Under the pieces are notes generated by a model. The model was not told the DNA's origin, searched no databases, and saw only the letters and a program-made list of their open reading frames with translations. This document shows positions 24,050 through 34,400 of a stretch of DNA of 64,000 nt, piece by piece. How positions within the stretch are numbered: the first letter of the stretch is position 1; the number at the start of each line of letters is the position of its first letter. The stretch is from a virus, in the IMG/VR virus record IMGVR_UViG_3300032893_000017, positions 1 to 64,000 of that record, one strand, 5' to 3'. A program made the position numbers and the translations under genes.

Positions 24050-24112
24050 AGCTTAAGTTATTCAAAATATTGCAACTTCTCGGGTAAATAAAAAGTTGCT
24101 AATTTAGTCTTA

Positions 24113-24178: not shown

Positions 24179-24206
24179 AAAAAAAGCTAGGCAATTTAGC
24201 CTAGCT
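24179..24206 (-). terminator. intrinsic terminator ending the small-gene operon
   Basis: AGCUAGGC-UAAAUU-GCCUAGCU followed by a U-tract. Confidence 0.85.
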
Positions 24207-25751: not shown

Positions 25752-25783
25752 CTCCTTGTAAAATAATTATAATTTAGAATCTT

Positions 25784-25832
25784 AAAGATTCAATTAAAGG
25801 CTCTATGTTTCAAGAGCCTAAAATTTAATCTT
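25784..25832 (-). ncRNA. conserved intergenic stem-loop element, copy A (unidentified)
   Basis: AAGAUUAAAUU-UU-AGGCUCU-loop-AGAGCCU-UU-AAUUGAAUCUUU. Confidence 0.7.
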
Positions 25833-26202: not shown

Positions 26203-26242
26203 AAAATCCTCCTTTTAAAATAATTTAGTTTTAGAATCCATA

Positions 26243-26291
26243 AAAGATTCAATTAAAGCCTTCAGTTGTTTGAAGGCTGAAATTCAATCTT
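26243..26291 (-). ncRNA. conserved intergenic stem-loop element, copy B
   Basis: AAGAUUGAAUU-UC-AGCCUUCA-loop-UGAAGGCU-UU-AAUUGAAUCUUU. Confidence 0.7.
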
Positions 26292-27499: not shown

Positions 27500-27826
27500 T
27501 TAATTATATAAAGTTTTTATCCAGCATCTTTTGTTTGTATCTCCCCAATCATAAAGTTCTTCCATTAAATAATTAAACTCTTCTACTGCTTCTCTATTTT
27601 CTTTGTAATAATCTGGATTACAGTTTTCTTTCAGTTCTTCAAATTCAATAATTAAATTATCAATCTTATCTTCATCATTTAATGGTTTTATTTTCTTCAA
27701 TCCTGTAATAACACAATCACAAAGTTTTGAAGTTTCTTCAAAAGTAATTTCATCTTCATCTTTGTCTTTTGTTAATTCCCAAACTCCATGAATGTCTAAA
27801 GTAGCTTTCCAATTTAAATTTTTCAT
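27500..27826 (-). CDS. conserved phage hypothetical protein
   Basis: WKATLDI...FNYLMEELYDWGD..RCWI pattern. Confidence 0.65.
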   Translation of the reverse strand: MKNLNWKATLDIHGVWELTKDKDEDEITFEETSKLCDCVITGLKKIKPLNDEDKIDNLIIEFEELKENCNPDYYKENREAVEEFNYLMEELYDWGDTNKRCWIKTLYN

Positions 27827-27838
27827 TTGTTTTCTCCT

Positions 27839-27902
27839 TTGATCTATCTCATCAGTTGCAAGTGATCAATCTTGCAAGACTCCCAGTTAAGGGAGTTTCG
27901 AA
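27839..27902 (-). ncRNA. hammerhead ribozyme, type II with pseudoknot
   Basis: UC-GAAA-CUCCC(uuaacu)GGGAG-UC-UUGCAAG(auugauca)CUUGCAA-CUGAUGA-GA; loop I UUGAUC pairs with 3' GAUCAA. Confidence 0.88.
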
Positions 27903-27903
27903 T

Positions 27904-28056
27904 TTATTTAACTTTCTTTTCCAATATCTTTTTCATATCAGGACTTATTACTGCATCTGGATCAAGTAAATCTTTTATGATCTGCTGTTTTTCAGTTTCA
28001 TTGTTTGCACTGTGTAATAATACTGCAACTTCAAGGTCATTGTAATAATATTTCAT
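27904..28056 (-). CDS. small hypothetical protein (not in track)
   Basis: 50 aa MKYYYNDLEV...; AAGGAGG RBS. Confidence 0.55.
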   Translation of the reverse strand: MKYYYNDLEVAVLLHSANNETEKQQIIKDLLDPDAVISPDMKKILEKKVK

Positions 28057-28057
28057 A

Positions 28058-28234
28058 CTATTCCTCCTTATATATTTCTGATAAATATTTTATTTCTGCA
28101 CAATAACCACAATGTGCATCATAATATTTATCATTTGGAGCAAGGTATGGTTTATATCTTTTATCAATTTTTTCTTCTGGCTTTGCTCCAACTACTTTCC
28201 TATAATTTTTTAAAAATTCTTTACAAGTATTCAT
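28058..28234 (-). CDS. small hypothetical protein (not in track)
   Basis: 58 aa MNTCKEFL...HCGYC; AAGGAGG RBS. Confidence 0.55.
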   Translation of the reverse strand: MNTCKEFLKNYRKVVGAKPEEKIDKRYKPYLAPNDKYYDAHCGYCAEIKYLSEIYKEE

Positions 28235-28449
28235 AAGGCTCCTCCTTTATACTTTACATGGTGCATTATTGAAAAACTTGAATATTTTAATATTTCATCA
28301 AATTTTTCTTTTTCTAAAACATAACAGGGATTTACTTTATAACCATTTCTTCTTATTTCTGAAATAAAATTACTTTTTGTTTTACAGTCTCGTTCTAAAA
28401 ATAATTTCTCTTTAGTTTTTTTATCTGTAACCATTGCTTTGAAAATCAT
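28231..28449 (-). CDS. hypothetical protein
   Basis: ORF with AGGAGG RBS. Confidence 0.6.
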   Translation of the reverse strand: MIFKAMVTDKKTKEKLFLERDCKTKSNFISEIRRNGYKVNPCYVLEKEKFDEILKYSSFSIMHHVKYKGGAL

Positions 28450-28462
28450 AAAATCCTCCTAT

Positions 28463-28514
28463 AAAAGATTCAATTAAATCCACTCAATTAAGAGTGGACA
28501 AAGTTTAATCTTTT
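28463..28514 (-). ncRNA. conserved intergenic stem-loop element, copy C
   Basis: AAAAGAUUAAACUU-UG-UCCACUC-loop-GAGUGGA-UUU-AAUUGAAUCUUUU. Confidence 0.7.
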
Positions 28515-28696
28515 ATAAACTTAATTATTTCCATTCTGATGTTCTCATGCATTTCATGGCTTGTTGTTTCTATTGCTGTATTCTCTTTTTCATTCCACAC
28601 TACAAATGTTCCTTTTTCTCTGTCATGCTTTAGAACCTTGAATGTCTCCATTGGATCGCTTATAAAATAAAATCTAGCTCCAACTAAATCTTCCAT
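28505..28696 (-). CDS. hypothetical protein
   Basis: ORF with AAGGAG RBS; TAATG coupling. Confidence 0.6.
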   Translation of the reverse strand: MEDLVGARFYFISDPMETFKVLKHDREKGTFVVWNEKENTAIETTSHEMHENIRMEIIKFIKD

Positions 28697-28887
28697 TATT
28701 CAACTCCTTTTGACTGATAAATTAAAATACCTTTATTGATACATTCTTGTAAATCTTCTTCTTTTTCACTTTTATATGCTATTCCACCAATTATATGTAT
28801 CTCATACATTAGCTTCATTACTTTATGTTTACTAATTGATATTTTATTACCTGAAGGTACATGCAAATAAATTCCTGTTTTTATCAT
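28696..28887 (-). CDS. hypothetical protein (true start MIKTGIYL, not 29124)
   Basis: AAGGAGGAG RBS before ATG 28887; the longer track ORF overlaps another gene and a ribozyme. Confidence 0.6.
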   Translation of the reverse strand: MIKTGIYLHVPSGNKISISKHKVMKLMYEIHIIGGIAYKSEKEEDLQECINKGILIYQSKGVE

Positions 28888-28904
28888 AATCTCCTCCTTA
28901 TTTA

Positions 28905-28966
28905 TTGCTGACTTTGAACAGCTTGTTTTCACAAGTGCATTACAGGGATTGCTCCCTGTCATCTGC
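28905..28966 (-). ncRNA. twister ribozyme, circularly permuted (open at P5 position)
   Basis: GCA-GAUGA-CAGGGA(gcaa)UCCCUG-UAA-UGC-AC-UUGU(gaaa)ACAA-GCUG(UUCAAAGU)CAGC-A. P1-P4 and both pseudoknots (UCA/UGA, AC/GU) are satisfied. Confidence 0.9.
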
Positions 28967-29158
28967 CTAGGCATATTTAAGATCATTAAGTAACCACATA
29001 GCTTCTGATTTTTTTTCAAAATAATCTTTATACTCATCATATTCTTCTTTTTTATCATAAGAACTTGCTGGTTTTTCAAAAGCTTGTATTTCTTGTAATT
29101 CACCCTTAACTTTTCCATTGTCAAAAAATTTAGATATAACCAAAAAATATGTTTTCAT
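28967..29158 (-). CDS. hypothetical protein (start MKTYFLV)
   Basis: AAGGAG RBS before ATG 29158; flanked by two ribozymes. Confidence 0.6.
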   Translation of the reverse strand: MKTYFLVISKFFDNGKVKGELQEIQAFEKPASSYDKKEEYDEYKDYFEKKSEAMWLLNDLKYA

Positions 29159-29192
29159 ATTTCTCTCCTTGATCATTTCTGATCTCATATTT

Positions 29193-29244
29193 ATTGCTGA
29201 CTCCCTTTCGGGAGTTTCGTCTATTTAAGACTCATCAGAGCAAC
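29193..29244 (-). ncRNA. hammerhead ribozyme, type I
   Basis: GUUGCU-CUGAUGA-GUCU(uaaau)AGAC-GAAA-CUCCC(gaaa)GGGAG-UC-AGCAAU; full core with GUC cleavage triplet. Confidence 0.93.
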
Positions 29245-30200
29245 TATTTTTCTAAAATCTTTATTATTTCTTTTGCTTGTTCAATATTTACTTTCAATCC
29301 ATTTATAGATATTTCATAATCTAATTTATCTTCTTCAACAGGCTTTATTAAATCAACTTTTATTTTTTGGTCTTTAATAGTAATACTATATTCGTCTATC
29401 TCATAACCTGATCTTTCATGTCTTCTTCCTCTATAATAAGGATTTAATTTATATTCTTTTTTGTGTTCTACTGTAATATTTAAAATCTCTTCAAGCTTTG
29501 TTTTTGTAGAATCAATATTTTTTAAGTTATCTACTTCTTCTTTTTTCTTTTCTTTTTCTTTCGCAATTTTATCATCTACCAATTTTTTGAACGAAGAAAT
29601 TAAAGACTCTAACTTCGTAAATCTTTTTGTTTTATAATCTGATATAGAATCATTGAAACTGTATCCTGCAAAATGTGAATCCATTGACCATTTACTATTC
29701 GAAACATAATGCTCTGATACATATATTTTATTATTCTTGTATTCAACAATTACTCTATAACCTCTTAAAAAGTTATCTTCATTAAAACTTTCAACTGAAG
29801 TTTTAATTCCACTTTCCTGTAAATTATCGATTAATTTTTTTACATTATGTATCCAACATTTATCATAAGCTTTTTTTGCTTTTTCTAGTTTTACTTTTCT
29901 ATCATTTTCTTTTTTAGCTTCTAATAATGATTTATATTCTTCATACAGTACAGTTAGATCCAATTCAATTCCTAATTCTTTTAATGATTTTTCAAAAGAC
30001 TCATCAAGGAATTTTGAATTTATAAAATTACTTTTTTCTGAATTCCAATCCATAAAAAATTTAATTTCTTTTACTGCATTATTAATCTTAACACTAATAA
30101 GTGCATTGTCTGTAACATATTCCTCATTTATTCTTTTAGAAACAATAAATTCAAATTCGTTCACTTTAGAAGGTTTTAAAATTTGTTTTGTAGTATCCAT
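29244..30200 (-). CDS. hypothetical protein, first gene of small-gene operon
   Basis: 318 aa K/E-rich ORF; RBS; preceded by a promoter. Confidence 0.65.
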   Translation of the reverse strand: MDTTKQILKPSKVNEFEFIVSKRINEEYVTDNALISVKINNAVKEIKFFMDWNSEKSNFINSKFLDESFEKSLKELGIELDLTVLYEEYKSLLEAKKENDRKVKLEKAKKAYDKCWIHNVKKLIDNLQESGIKTSVESFNEDNFLRGYRVIVEYKNNKIYVSEHYVSNSKWSMDSHFAGYSFNDSISDYKTKRFTKLESLISSFKKLVDDKIAKEKEKKKEEVDNLKNIDSTKTKLEEILNITVEHKKEYKLNPYYRGRRHERSGYEIDEYSITIKDQKIKVDLIKPVEEDKLDYEISINGLKVNIEQAKEIIKILEK

Positions 30201-30262
30201 AATATTCTCCTGTTAAATAATCTAATTAAAAAGATTCATACGAATCTTCCCTTTGTAATAAT

Positions 30263-30292
30263 ATTATACAAATGAGATTGGATTAATTAACC
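30263..30292 (-). promoter_or_regulatory. promoter GGTTAATT-N13-TTGTATAAT
   Basis: Duplicate of the motif at 27264-27293. Confidence 0.65.
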
Positions 30293-30320
30293 AGAAAATA
30301 AAGAAATTTTTCCCACTATA

Positions 30321-30554
30321 TTATAGGTCTAAAATTGAGGTTTTCTTTGAAATGCTTAAATTGGAATAGACATATTGTAAAGGTAAAGTAACAAGGGTTT
30401 TGCAGGAAAGACACCTGCATAATACTTTTGAGTCCTTATTGAGAAATACAAGACGACTCTTGATGATGATGTCATCATTCTTAGAAATGTTCTTTAGATT
30501 TTTTTCTACTATTGTTTTGCCACACTTTGGGCATAGGAACTTATCTTCGTTCAT
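30321..30554 (-). CDS. zinc-ribbon protein (Com-like)
   Basis: CPKCG...CRCLSCK. Confidence 0.55.
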   Translation of the reverse strand: MNEDKFLCPKCGKTIVEKNLKNISKNDDIIIKSRLVFLNKDSKVLCRCLSCKTLVTLPLQYVYSNLSISKKTSILDL

Positions 30555-30921
30555 CTATTATCTCCACTTCCAAGTCTTGAATCTTGTTATTTACTTTCTT
30601 GTACACAAAAAAATCAAAGTTGTAAACTATCATATATAGAAAGTCTTGAAACATATTACCATAATCTGTGAGGGATAAATCTTTAAAGTTGCTATGACAA
30701 TGACAGAAGCAAACACAAGAATAATTTCCAAACAGTATTATCATAGAAAATAATAACAGTGAAAAGAACTCTACTTCATATTTATCCTCTCCACATCTTT
30801 TGGTACTGCAATGATATATTTTATTGAAGTTTTCTTTTCCATATATAAAGCAAGATTCTTCTTCTTTTAATTTCCTAAGTTCTTTTGCTATCCTCTTTGT
30901 TATTCTTATTTTACTGTTCAT
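30541..30921 (-). CDS. JAB/MPN-like domain protein
   Basis: E-S-C-F-I-Y-G near the N-terminus and HCH-x5-L-S-x-x-D, matching the JAMM E...HxH..S..D pattern. Confidence 0.6.
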   Translation of the reverse strand: MNSKIRITKRIAKELRKLKEEESCFIYGKENFNKIYHCSTKRCGEDKYEVEFFSLLLFSMIILFGNYSCVCFCHCHSNFKDLSLTDYGNMFQDFLYMIVYNFDFFVYKKVNNKIQDLEVEIIDERR

Positions 30922-31234
30922 ACATCCCTCTTACAAGATTCAAATCATTTGCTTTTATTTTATCTATATCAGACTCTAATAATTTTTGCTGTGTTCTTAG
31001 TTCATCATGTCTTACAATTAGATCCTTCATTTTGTTCATGTTATCTTCTGTAAAGAATCCAATATTTAACATATCAAAAAAGATGTCTAAATAGAAACTT
31101 CTTCTGCAAAAGTCTCTAGGTCTGTATTGCTTAATGGTTTCTTTTCTTATTACTACTTTGAATAGATCCTGTATTTCTTTTTCTATTTGCTTTATCTGGG
31201 TTAGTATTACTGAATAGTTGTTTAATTCATTCAT
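30911..31234 (-). CDS. hypothetical coiled-coil protein
   Basis: ORF, translationally coupled. Confidence 0.55.
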   Translation of the reverse strand: MNELNNYSVILTQIKQIEKEIQDLFKVVIRKETIKQYRPRDFCRRSFYLDIFFDMLNIGFFTEDNMNKMKDLIVRHDELRTQQKLLESDIDKIKANDLNLVRGMYEQ

Positions 31235-31460
31235 TTATAGTCTCCTTGCCAAAATCTAAATATTCTTGATGAGAATATTCTAAATCTTCTATCATTTGAT
31301 CTATCTCGTCAAGATCATTTTGCAGATTCAACAAAGCCTCCCCGTCAAGCTTCTTTTGTAACTGTAGCATTTTCTTTTTTTGTTCTTTTAGATGTTCCAT
31401 TTGCTTTTCTATCTCTGAATGATTCAACAATGCTAAATCTTTTATATGTTTCACTGTCAT
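31227..31460 (-). CDS. hypothetical coiled-coil protein
   Basis: ORF with ATGA overlap. Confidence 0.55.
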   Translation of the reverse strand: MTVKHIKDLALLNHSEIEKQMEHLKEQKKKMLQLQKKLDGEALLNLQNDLDEIDQMIEDLEYSHQEYLDFGKETINE

Positions 31461-34400
31461 GCTCCTTCTAATGAAGTATCTATGGATGCTAATGTTCTTT
31501 TATATTTTTGTAATTTTTTATTTAGATTTTCTTCATATATATTCGAGAATTTATATGATATAATGTTTGCGTCTTCTTTACGATTACCCCTTGTTATTCT
31601 GCCATCTACCTGTATATCTCCCATCCCGTCAAATAGAGTTCCTACTTTATGGAGGGTGTTTGCCTTCTGAAGGTTATGCCCCGCTACTTGCCCTTTAGAA
31701 ATAAATAACAATCCTGGATTTTCAGAATCATTCCAGTTAAGCTTGTTTTGTATTGCTTCTTTCTTTTTACCTAACATCGAGAATAGTTGTTCTTTAGGAT
31801 ATCCTTTATCTAGCAATACTTTTGTGATATGTTCTTGATGATTTATATCATCAACATATATTACATGCTTCTCATTTATTTTATCAAATATGTTTTTTAC
31901 TAATTGTTTTGTCTTTGGGTTTTTTATTCCATCATATTTATTAGATTCTTTTATTTGTTCTGCTACTAGGTTGTTGATAAATGTTTGCTTTCTTCTTTCT
32001 TCCCAGCTCCCTGGATAAGATTCTTTAAAATATTGAGGAGTGTTTTTTATAAACTTTTTCATCTCTGATTCTGCATTACTTATTTTCTTCTTAAGGTATA
32101 CATTCATTTCAGGAAGCATCTTTGTCTTTTCTAACTTCTTGTTTATTTTATATCCTCTCTTTGTTAGCTGGTCATTAGTAACATAATTGTCTATTATATC
32201 CCTGTAATATTCCTTCATTAGATTTTGTTGTCCAAGATTCATATCTATAAAACTGTAATTTTCCGTCTTTAACATTCCATTGATGTCATACTTTTCTTTA
32301 TCTCCAAATTGTAGTTTAAAGTTTCCTCTTTTTCCAACCCCATCAGGATCGACCCAATTTATAAGATTATATACATCACTTGGATTCTCTTGTATTGGAG
32401 TTGCTGTTAATGCTATTTTATGCTTTGTTTTTAATCCACTTATTATTTCTCTTCCTTTTGTTTTGATGTCTCCATTCTTATCAAAGAATATTTCATGTGG
32501 TTCATCTATAGTAAGATTGTCTATTTTCTTTTTTGATAGTATATCTGTATTGTTTACTAGGTCAGTATGTGAAATTACAAATATATTTCCATTTGCTGAT
32601 GTGTTTTGTAATAGCTTTCTTTTTTGATTCCTGTCCATATCTTCTGGAATTTCTGTTACCTTTAAGTTTGTGTATTTCTTTATCTCATCTACCTGCTGTT
32701 TGACATTCTTATCAGGAATAACCATTACAGTAGAATACTTTGGATCTTTTACTAATTGAGTTGCATGAAATCCTACAGCAATCATTGTCTTACCTGTTCC
32801 TACTCCTCTGCTGATTATACCCTTGCCTCCATTACTGTTTAGAAATTGAACATCATTTCTTTGGTGGGGTTTGAATTTGAATTCAGATTTGAATCCATGA
32901 ATTTTATAATTTGTGTATTCATTACCTTGTTTATCTATTAATACACCTGTGGAATTATTTTTTATTTTATTAAGTTTATCTTTCCTTTCTTTGTCTATCT
33001 TATTTATCTTGATGTAATTTGATAATAAATTAGAACTAAGTACCACTCTATTTTTGAATGGATGTAATTCTAGCTTAGCATTATTCCTGTCTGTGGAGAA
33101 TATCATATTTTTATATTCTATCTTTGCTTTGTCCGGGTCTTTTGAAAGTTCTATATCTACATGGCTTATATCTTTTTCATTTTTTATCTTCTTTAATGAA
33201 TTTAAAAGTTCACTGGTTGACTTTAATAAACCCAAAGAACTTCCAAGGATATTACGCTGCTCTATAAGATTGTCTACTAAAGATCTTTCAGCTTCTTTGT
33301 TGAATACTTTTACTTGAGTAATTTTTGTTCTTAGATTCTGTGCTTCTTTCTTTAAACCTTTTATCTTATCTAGTGCATTATTTTCTATATGTTCTACTTC
33401 ACTTTCAAAATAGGATTCTATATTATCAATGAATTTTTCATATTTGTTCTTATCTAGTGTATTTCTTAAGTGCATAGCCAATAGATTCATAGACTTCTCT
33501 AATCCTATTCCTTCTATAAGTCGCTTGAAGTCCATGTTAATATCTAAGAATTTATTTGTCAGTGCATTTACTTGTCTTGTTCCTGCTTTATTGATAAGTA
33601 AGTTTATATTTGCTAAAGAATCTCCATCACTGAGTTTTGATAATACAGTGTATAATGATTCTGAATTATTTTTATAGCTTATTTTATCAAACCGTTTTCC
33701 TATTTCCTCTACATCTTCTTTTGAAACTTCTAAGCCTTCTATTTTAATGTTCATTAGGTTCTCATATTTTTCTTTGTTTACTTTTTTATATTCCTTTTCA
33801 AATGATTCTTTTTTAGCAAGATTGTCTATATATTGTTTTGTTTTCTTTCTTATTTCACTTTTATTTTCTAATGCTTGTTTGTCTAATCCAGAATTGAATG
33901 TTATTTTTATTCCTTCTTCATTATTAAGTTCATTCTTTACATCATTAACAAGTTCCAATCCATAATGATATTCATTTGGGATGTTTACATATAGTTCGTC
34001 CTTCTTATCTGTCTGTACTTCTTTGTAGTTTGCCAGTTTGTTGCAGTCTTTTATTTTACTTTGTTTCTTTCTTCTTAATACTTCTGATAATACTGTTTGT
34101 ATAGTTTGTTCCTTTTGCTCTTCAGATAGTTTATCATTCTTGTCTAGATTTGTTTTTAATTTTGTAGCAATGGATTCTAGTTCTTTATTTTCCTTTTCTT
34201 TGTTTGTTACTTCTTTTAACACTGCTCTTCTAGAGTCTTTTATTGATTTGTCTATTTCTTTTCTGGTTTCTTTTTTCTTTGTTTTTATCTCTTCTTTAAT
34301 TCTTACTTTTTCTAATTGTCTTTCTGTAAGCTGTTTTTCTTCTTTGGGTTTTTCCAATTTGTCTTTCTTAGCATTTACTTTGAAAGTAAGATGTGATTTT

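Follow-up and report, generated by a model that had tools for sequence, protein, structure and literature searches.

We identified a type-P5 twister ribozyme core at 28907..28967 on the minus strand of the analysed window, which comprises the first 64 kb (64,000 nucleotides) of a virus record from IMG/VR. Its assignment is based on a match to the Rfam family RF02684, on the minimum-free-energy fold and on covariation among 20 sequences. The element belongs to the twister family by both sequence and structure, and it is situated between two cistrons. Judging from its sequence, we consider it very probable that this is a functional type-P5 twister within a co-directional operon of small genes, cutting between U28942 and A28941, and its function would likely be the processing of a polycistronic small-gene transcript. 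Ribozymes between phage genes are an arrangement known since 2011-2014, and the present copy is a clean but ordinary case of it; as far as its bases tell, it falls into a type-P5 subclass that recurs in phages, and its T1 pseudoknot is uncommon.

The record is an uncultured 97,318-bp virus with direct terminal repeats and is estimated to be complete. Only one sequencing run, of DNA from a wetland metagenome and probably the source of the record, was found to contain the region. All long ORFs are located on the minus strand, and the structural genes identified among them code for the major head protein, tail sheath, portal and large terminase, which points to a contractile-tailed phage. The part between 24 and 32 kb is the AT-richest (26-27% GC) and is packed with small ORFs; promoter-like sites were not more frequent than in shuffled sequence. 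Terminator-like hairpins followed by U-runs were seen at 24185-24206 (both strands) and 24072-24099 (minus strand), and likely mark the 3' end of the small-gene operon, just ahead of the structural module. No orthologous copy of the twister was found in close relatives of the phage: blastn of the region 27500-31500 against the phage collection gave no match, the 318-aa and 73-aa flanking proteins had no relatives among viral contigs, and four phage fragments sharing the major head protein (58-61% identity; 18-43% complete) had no twister in them.

The element is composed of a P2 strand, the L1 strand of T1, the P1 hairpin, the cleavage site, the other P2 strand, the T2 strand, P3 and, finally, P4 with its loop L4. 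Read on the minus strand after the TAG codon, it runs G, GCA, G, A, UGA, then CAGGGA-GCAA-UCCCUG, U^AA, UGC and AC, and continues with UUGU-GAAA-ACAA, GCU, the loop G-U-UCA-AA-GU-C and AGC. As read from the sequence, P2 is formed by GCA 28966-28964 with UGC 28939-28937, i.e. three Watson-Crick pairs versus the canonical four; P1 by CAGGGA 28958-28953 with UCCCUG 28948-28943, closed by a GCAA loop; and P4 by GCU(G) 28922-28919 with (C)AGC 28910-28907. The pseudoknots were read in the same way, T1 joining UGA 28961-28959 in L1 with UCA 28917-28915 in L4, and T2 joining AC 28936-28935 in L2 with GU 28912-28911 in L4. The optional P3 hairpin (UUGU-GAAA-ACAA, 28934-28923) comes from the minimum-free-energy fold and is an insertion in the Rfam model; P3 hairpins occur at the equivalent place in other members of the subclass. 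All these parts are on the minus strand, as are the predicted scissile bond U28942^A28941 and the A28940 that follows it, which were placed by the UAA that is invariant in the Rfam consensus and in our alignment of 20 sequences (A1, see below). The adenine A28941 lies on the 3' side of the scissile bond, and the conserved guanine 28963, next to the P2 strand in GCAG-A, which is upper case in the Rfam consensus and forms the invariant column G5 of A1, corresponds to the guanine implicated in catalysis (PMC5408937). Unconstrained minimum-free-energy folding recovered P1, P2, P3 and P4 at -23.4 kcal/mol (z = -2.45), with 1 of 200 shuffled sequences being as stable.

The initial annotation had folded the element by hand as a circularly permuted twister starting right after a stop codon. 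Every part that it listed was found in the sequence at the place it gave, with P1 to P4 returned by the fold as well. The permutation is that of type P5, where P1 is closed by a loop and the ends lie between P4 and P2, and the element does begin at the stop codon: the TAG of the upstream gene (28969-28967) abuts the ribozyme, and its last G is position 1 of the Rfam model. The assignment to twister ribozymes was likewise upheld, as the pseudoknots are paired, the invariant bases are present, siblings with the same core score over the family cut-off and the stems covary in A1.

The search with the twister-P5 model, which the same annotation had proposed as a check, resulted in a full-length match (model positions 1-58 of RF02684) at 28907-28967 on the minus strand with 37.5 bits, 0.1 below the curated gathering cut-off of 37.6, which is an operational threshold and not a structural feature. 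The E-value was 3.6e-6 for a stretch of 701 nt and 3.3e-4 for the 64-kb window, and the match was unique in the 97-kb genome. With a score 0.1 bit under the Rfam cut-off, the twister would be missed by standard annotation; a search at gathering thresholds reports the type II hammerhead at 27838-27903 alone, and the twister surfaces with E-value reporting. No further ribozymes were found at E <= 0.5 in the window and in the remaining 33 kb. The score was lost at P1, which has 6-7 bp versus 8 in the model, at the P3 insertion and at the deleted fourth pair of P2. It was also lost at the T1 and T2 bases, which are non-consensus and are read as mismatches; a covariance model cannot score these pseudoknots as pairs. 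Outside T1 and T2, every upper-case position of the Rfam consensus is matched by the window copy, and the conserved GCAGA, UAAUGC and GU..AA..C (the latter in L4) are all present.

The consensus of T1 is GGG/CCC and that of T2 is GC/GC, versus UGA/UCA and AC/GU here; both sides of each pseudoknot are altered together, and pairing of T1 and T2 is thus kept via compensatory changes. Scanning the viral collection with T1 left open and T2 fixed gave 76 unique sequences with a P1 hairpin and P4, of which 72 were fully complementary in T1, with 18 pair types, UGA/UCA among them; when the loop triplets were reshuffled among these sequences, the number of complementary ones averaged 32 and never exceeded 42. 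The converse scan of the viral collection, with T2 open and T1 fixed as GUG/CAC, gave 99 unique sequences, and T2 was paired in all 99: GC/GC in 44, GG/CC in 20, AC/GU in 19, GC/GU in 9, GG/UC in 4 and CC/GG in 3. Given these spectra, the pseudoknots of the window copy are ordinary members of the natural range. UGA/UCA is nevertheless an uncommon T1: only three copies combining it with the AC/GU T2 turned up in the viral and metagenome collections taken together, and none in the genome collection; one more copy has it with a GC/GC T2. Since the base before GCAG has no covariation in the subclass, the UAAUGC-AC arrangement accompanies a 3-bp P2, and this design of a 3-bp P2 with AC/GU is present in at least 19 independent phage copies.

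Covariation was further assessed in alignment A1, consisting of 20 sequences of the UAAUGCAC subclass with P2, T1, P1, T2 and P4 entered by hand. In this set, where T1 had been held constant in the retrieval of most rows and pairing is favoured by the P1 and P4 filters of the sample, 98.4% of the cells were paired, versus 69.2% in column shuffles (0 of 500 reached the observed value) and 28-38% when partner columns were slid. Two-sided changes were seen in 14 of the 19 pairs (P1 8/8, T1 3/3, P4 3/3), for T1 of which the T1-open scan is the cleaner test. Pairing reached 96% in P1 and 100% in P4; P2 (3 bp) and T2 were invariant, and the fourth canonical P2 pair is missing throughout the subclass, the window copy included. 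At the 20 invariant columns of A1 the window copy holds the invariant base in every case (20/20), including G28963, A28941 and U28942.

Sibling copies were sought in viral DNA with the L1 and L2 bases of the window copy fixed and the pseudoknot bases of L4 left open. The scan returned 19 viral stretches, about as many as a rough chance estimate, and 18 of them were chance matches without a P1 hairpin. The sole real twister among them, on contig L011, has the same core and the same loop L4 (GUUCAAAGUC) and differs in its stems (P1 CAGGCGGG/CCCGCUUG, P4 GCC/GGC). In metagenome_contigs the one match, L028, has the same core with P1 CAGGGGC/GCCCCUG and a P4 that differs as well, and the exact-variant pattern had 0 matches in genome_contigs. 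Both siblings score above the RF02684 cut-off (43.0 bits for L011, 47.3 bits for L028), and both lie on GC-rich environmental contigs, each in the gap from a stop codon to a ribosome-binding site. That a phage of 27% GC has its catalytic core in common with GC-rich contigs speaks for selection at the RNA level. An A after P4, held to be conserved in the initial annotation, is replaced by G in both siblings, and this detail of the description had to be dropped. All 16 of the scanned members of the UAAUGCAC subclass, namely 15 from the sample with GUG/CAC in T1 plus L028, were above the cut-off, with 46.6-58.6 bits. Pistol ribozymes, hammerhead II or several twisters were found close to sibling loci.

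The name of the type comes from stem P5, which is formed by the 5' and 3' flanks and is excluded from the Rfam model. The only candidates for P5 here are CCU/AGG and an A-U-rich pairing of 8 bp, neither of them better than chance. For 132-138 phage copies, the energies of flank-to-flank duplexes at flank lengths of 10, 20, 35 and 50 nt were the same as those of mismatched or shuffled flanks, and the window flanks ranged between the 26th and 85th percentile of controls across the lengths used. P5 is thus undetectable in phage copies generally, and its apparent absence here need not count against membership. It should be mentioned that the "type-P5" twisters of phages, with no detectable pairing of flanks, are effectively open between P4 and P2. 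We also considered a P5 that masks the Shine-Dalgarno sequence until cleavage; the corresponding fold of 146 nt, with AUGAUCUU/GAGAUUAU and CCU/AGG, was unexceptional (z = -1.4), and the candidate was rejected as unsupported.

The gene upstream of the ribozyme is a small ORF of 73 aa (28967..29188, minus strand), taken from the ORF list and the sequence. It has three in-frame ATGs (29156-29188), and a Shine-Dalgarno sequence, AAGGAGAG, precedes the third of them alone (29158), therefore the protein is probably 63 aa long. The downstream gene, delimited by sequence and context analysis, also codes for 63 aa (28696..28887, minus strand); it has AAGGAGG at 28899-28893, and its ATG at 28887 begins 19 nt past P4. 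Neither of the two small proteins had a match in Pfam and PHROG, and the flanking genes are unrelated orphans. A 142-aa ORF with a TTG start (28696..29124, minus strand) runs across the element and shares its frame and stop codon with the gene starting at ATG 28887. It overlaps the upstream gene out of frame, has no ribosome-binding site and was rejected as an artefact, in agreement with the earlier remark that the ribozyme had been hidden inside a spurious long ORF. An intrinsic terminator was discarded as well, there being no terminator-like site on the minus strand at the element.

Phage twisters normally occupy such a position, with a stop codon before them and a ribosome-binding site after them. 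Among 119 phage twister-P5 copies with enough flank, 82% were preceded within 60 nt by an ORF end (ORFs of at least 40 codons; median gap 3 nt), and in 87% a Shine-Dalgarno sequence with a start codon followed within 80 nt (median 26 nt); both placements applied to 69% of the copies versus 14% of random positions in the same loci. The gap between stop codon and ribozyme, usually 0-3 nt in phage twisters, is 0 nt here.

Two hammerhead ribozymes accompany the twister. The type I hammerhead (29193..29244, minus strand) scored 28.4 bits with Hammerhead_1 (cut-off 34) and 31.1 bits with RAGATH-1-hammerhead (cut-off 56.3), and being below both Rfam cut-offs it would also be missed by standard annotation. 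With an intact core of CUGAUGA, GAAA and GUC, it forms a clean three-way junction on folding; it begins at the TAG of the 318-aa gene, and the predicted cut is C29199^A29198. With the upstream small gene starting at 29158, the leader left after this cut would be about 40 nt. The type II hammerhead (27838..27903, minus strand) scored 42.6 bits with Hammerhead_II, above the cut-off of 37. It follows a TAA stop codon directly and ends 11 nt ahead of the next ATG, with the predicted cut at C27878^U27877, and its stem II has only about three weak pairs. The twister and both hammerheads are thus on one strand (minus) within 1.4 kb, each beginning at a stop codon.

A 14-mer, GTCAGCAATAAATA, was observed at 28899-28912 and 29188-29201 (minus strand), covering the 3' end and the downstream junction of the twister and of the type I hammerhead; the window has no other exact copies. 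An exchange of junction modules may have left it there, or it may be a shared leader element. Furthermore, a long interrupted hairpin occurs in three intergenic copies of the same operon (28450-28504, 26203-26291 and 25752-25830, minus strand), composed of AAGAUU..AAUU..GC-rich stem..AAUUGAAUCUU, with z-scores from -3.8 to -5.0. The three copies occupy slots where ribozymes sit elsewhere in the operon, and they matched no family of Rfam.

The class chemistry is an internal transesterification at a U-A step, leaving 2',3'-cyclic phosphate and 5'-OH ends (PMC5408937, PMC8782182). In the mechanism that we propose, P2-P1 and P3/P4 would fold once P4 has been transcribed and would be locked by T1 (UGA/UCA) and T2 (AC/GU), and the RNA would then cut itself co-transcriptionally at U28942^A28941. 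Of the two products, the upstream message would extend 26 nt past the stop codon of its gene and finish in the P1 hairpin, its 3' end being a 2',3'-cyclic phosphate, and the downstream one would have a 5'-OH and a 54-nt leader with the P3 and P4 hairpins before AAGGAGG and the ATG. As the predicted cut of the type I hammerhead lies 257 nt upstream and that of the type II hammerhead 1064 nt downstream of the twister cut, the three cuts would release one RNA with a single gene (about 257 nt) and another with five genes (about 1.06 kb, or 1064 nt). Stability and translation could then differ between the RNA segments.

Several published observations bear on this proposal. Twisters and hammerheads are often found within a few kb of one another (PMC5408937), clustered hammerheads of prophages flank genes and cut constructs of a polycistronic transcript of about 2 kb in vitro and in E. 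coli (PMC3088659), and the processing of mRNA is a role proposed before (PMC6765202). In an engineered E. coli reporter, however, twister cleavage in the 5'-UTR caused no noticeable change in mRNA stability or expression (PMC5052635), and an effect on expression is therefore not a given.

Other explanations for the element have to be considered. It is quite unlikely, in our opinion, that it represents a decayed or very slow relic of a twister, persisting as an intergenic spacer or a set of hairpins. Such a reading would accommodate the score just below the Rfam cut-off, the P2 of 3 bp, the P1 of only 6-7 bp and the undetected P5, and it has a precedent in some ribozyme variants of phages that are slow or possibly non-functional (Perreault et al., PMC3088659). 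However, decay in a 27%-GC genome is not expected to keep all invariant core bases and both pseudoknots, as is the case here; the same combination of 3-bp P2 and AC/GU recurs in at least 19 independent phage copies, and the core is identical to that of the copies in GC-rich contigs. A chance resemblance, with the sequence being part of the 142-aa TTG ORF or forming generic hairpins such as a terminator or a nuclease site, is very improbable indeed. One reading frame is open across the element and the fold energy is only moderately unusual (z = -2.45), but an E-value of 3.3e-4 would have to coincide with the pairing of two pseudoknots that the model does not score, for which we estimate about 0.05 x 0.14 (6/16 pairs per position). 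Moreover, the 142-aa ORF overlaps the 73-aa gene out of frame and lacks a ribosome-binding site, and a perfect AAGGAGG stands before ATG 28887; the minus strand has no terminator-like site here, and the structure covaries over 20 homologues.

The element may also be active and not constitutive, with cleavage gated by or reporting the translation of the upstream gene, or it may serve as the boundary marker of exchangeable gene cassettes; to this we assign a small probability. The stop codon abuts the P2/T1 strand, so that a terminating ribosome would mask it, and the gap between stop codon and ribozyme, with a median of 3 nt over 119 phage copies, is reduced to 0 nt in the window. For exchange, the 14-mer common to the 3' ends of the twister and the type I hammerhead hints at a transfer of junction modules, and the flanking genes are orphans unrelated to each other. 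Against both versions, genes of any compact phage genome should be closely packed and the abutment needs no special explanation, and no signal of P5 or of Shine-Dalgarno sequestration was found. In a more general form, twister-P5 ribozymes of phages would be translation-sensing switches of processing that couple the fate of the downstream cistron to translation of the upstream one, which we regard as an unlikely generalisation. Altogether, we prefer a functional twister that would process the small-gene transcript.

As described by Roth et al. (2014) in the account given in PMC5408937, type-P5 twisters (RF02684, clan CL00120) have the same permutation as the window copy and share with it GCAGA, UAAUGC and GU..AA..C, stems P1, P2, P4 and the optional P3, both pseudoknots and the U-A site. 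The window copy departs from the norm of the type in its score, 0.1 bit under the cut-off, and in the uncommon UGA/UCA of T1; its AC/GU in T2 as opposed to the "conserved GC", its P2 of three pairs as opposed to four and its lack of a detectable P5 are common among phage copies. The closest parallel in arrangement is offered by prophage hammerheads (Perreault et al. 2011, PMC3088659), which are likewise same-strand ribozymes between small unrelated phage genes, and for which the same proposal was made, i.e. that long phage transcripts are cut to gene-length mRNAs. In contrast to that array, ribozymes of mixed classes (hammerhead I, twister and hammerhead II) occur here, their cleavage being predicted from sequence, three non-ribozyme hairpins occupy equivalent slots, and the phage is a free one of 97 kb and not an integrated prophage. 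A further likeness exists outside the ribozymes. The RNase III sites of the T7 early mRNA are also structured RNAs between genes; they too divide a polycistronic phage message, the new ends of which carry hairpins. RNase III is, however, an enzyme of the host that leaves 3'-OH and 5'-phosphate ends, whereas the cut proposed here would be autocatalytic and would leave 2',3'-cyclic phosphate and 5'-OH ends.

The twister class counts thousands of members, to which one is added here. The copy is, at the same time, a case study of how covariance models undervalue members with compensatory changes in pseudoknots, and as a natural variant combining T1 UGA/UCA, T2 AC/GU and a 3-bp P2 it provides a ready-made test for pseudoknot models. 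The abutment to stop codons, the undetected P5 of phage copies and the spectra of T1 and T2 may help to settle the role of these ribozymes in phages.

Finally, some loci encountered in the scans are of interest in their own right. Twisters form dense arrays in other contigs, such as L047:3270-5402 (plus strand), where five copies spaced by about 540 nt share 2.1 kb, and L203:1192-5663 (minus strand), with four in 4.5 kb. On unrelated phage contigs, twister-P5 members of the subclass to which the window copy belongs have other ribozymes at a distance of 1-4 kb, namely pistol ribozymes at L156:2626-2690 and L195:7070-7143 (both plus strand; 59 and 53.8 bits) and a type II hammerhead at L186:12751-12814 (minus strand; 51.1 bits).
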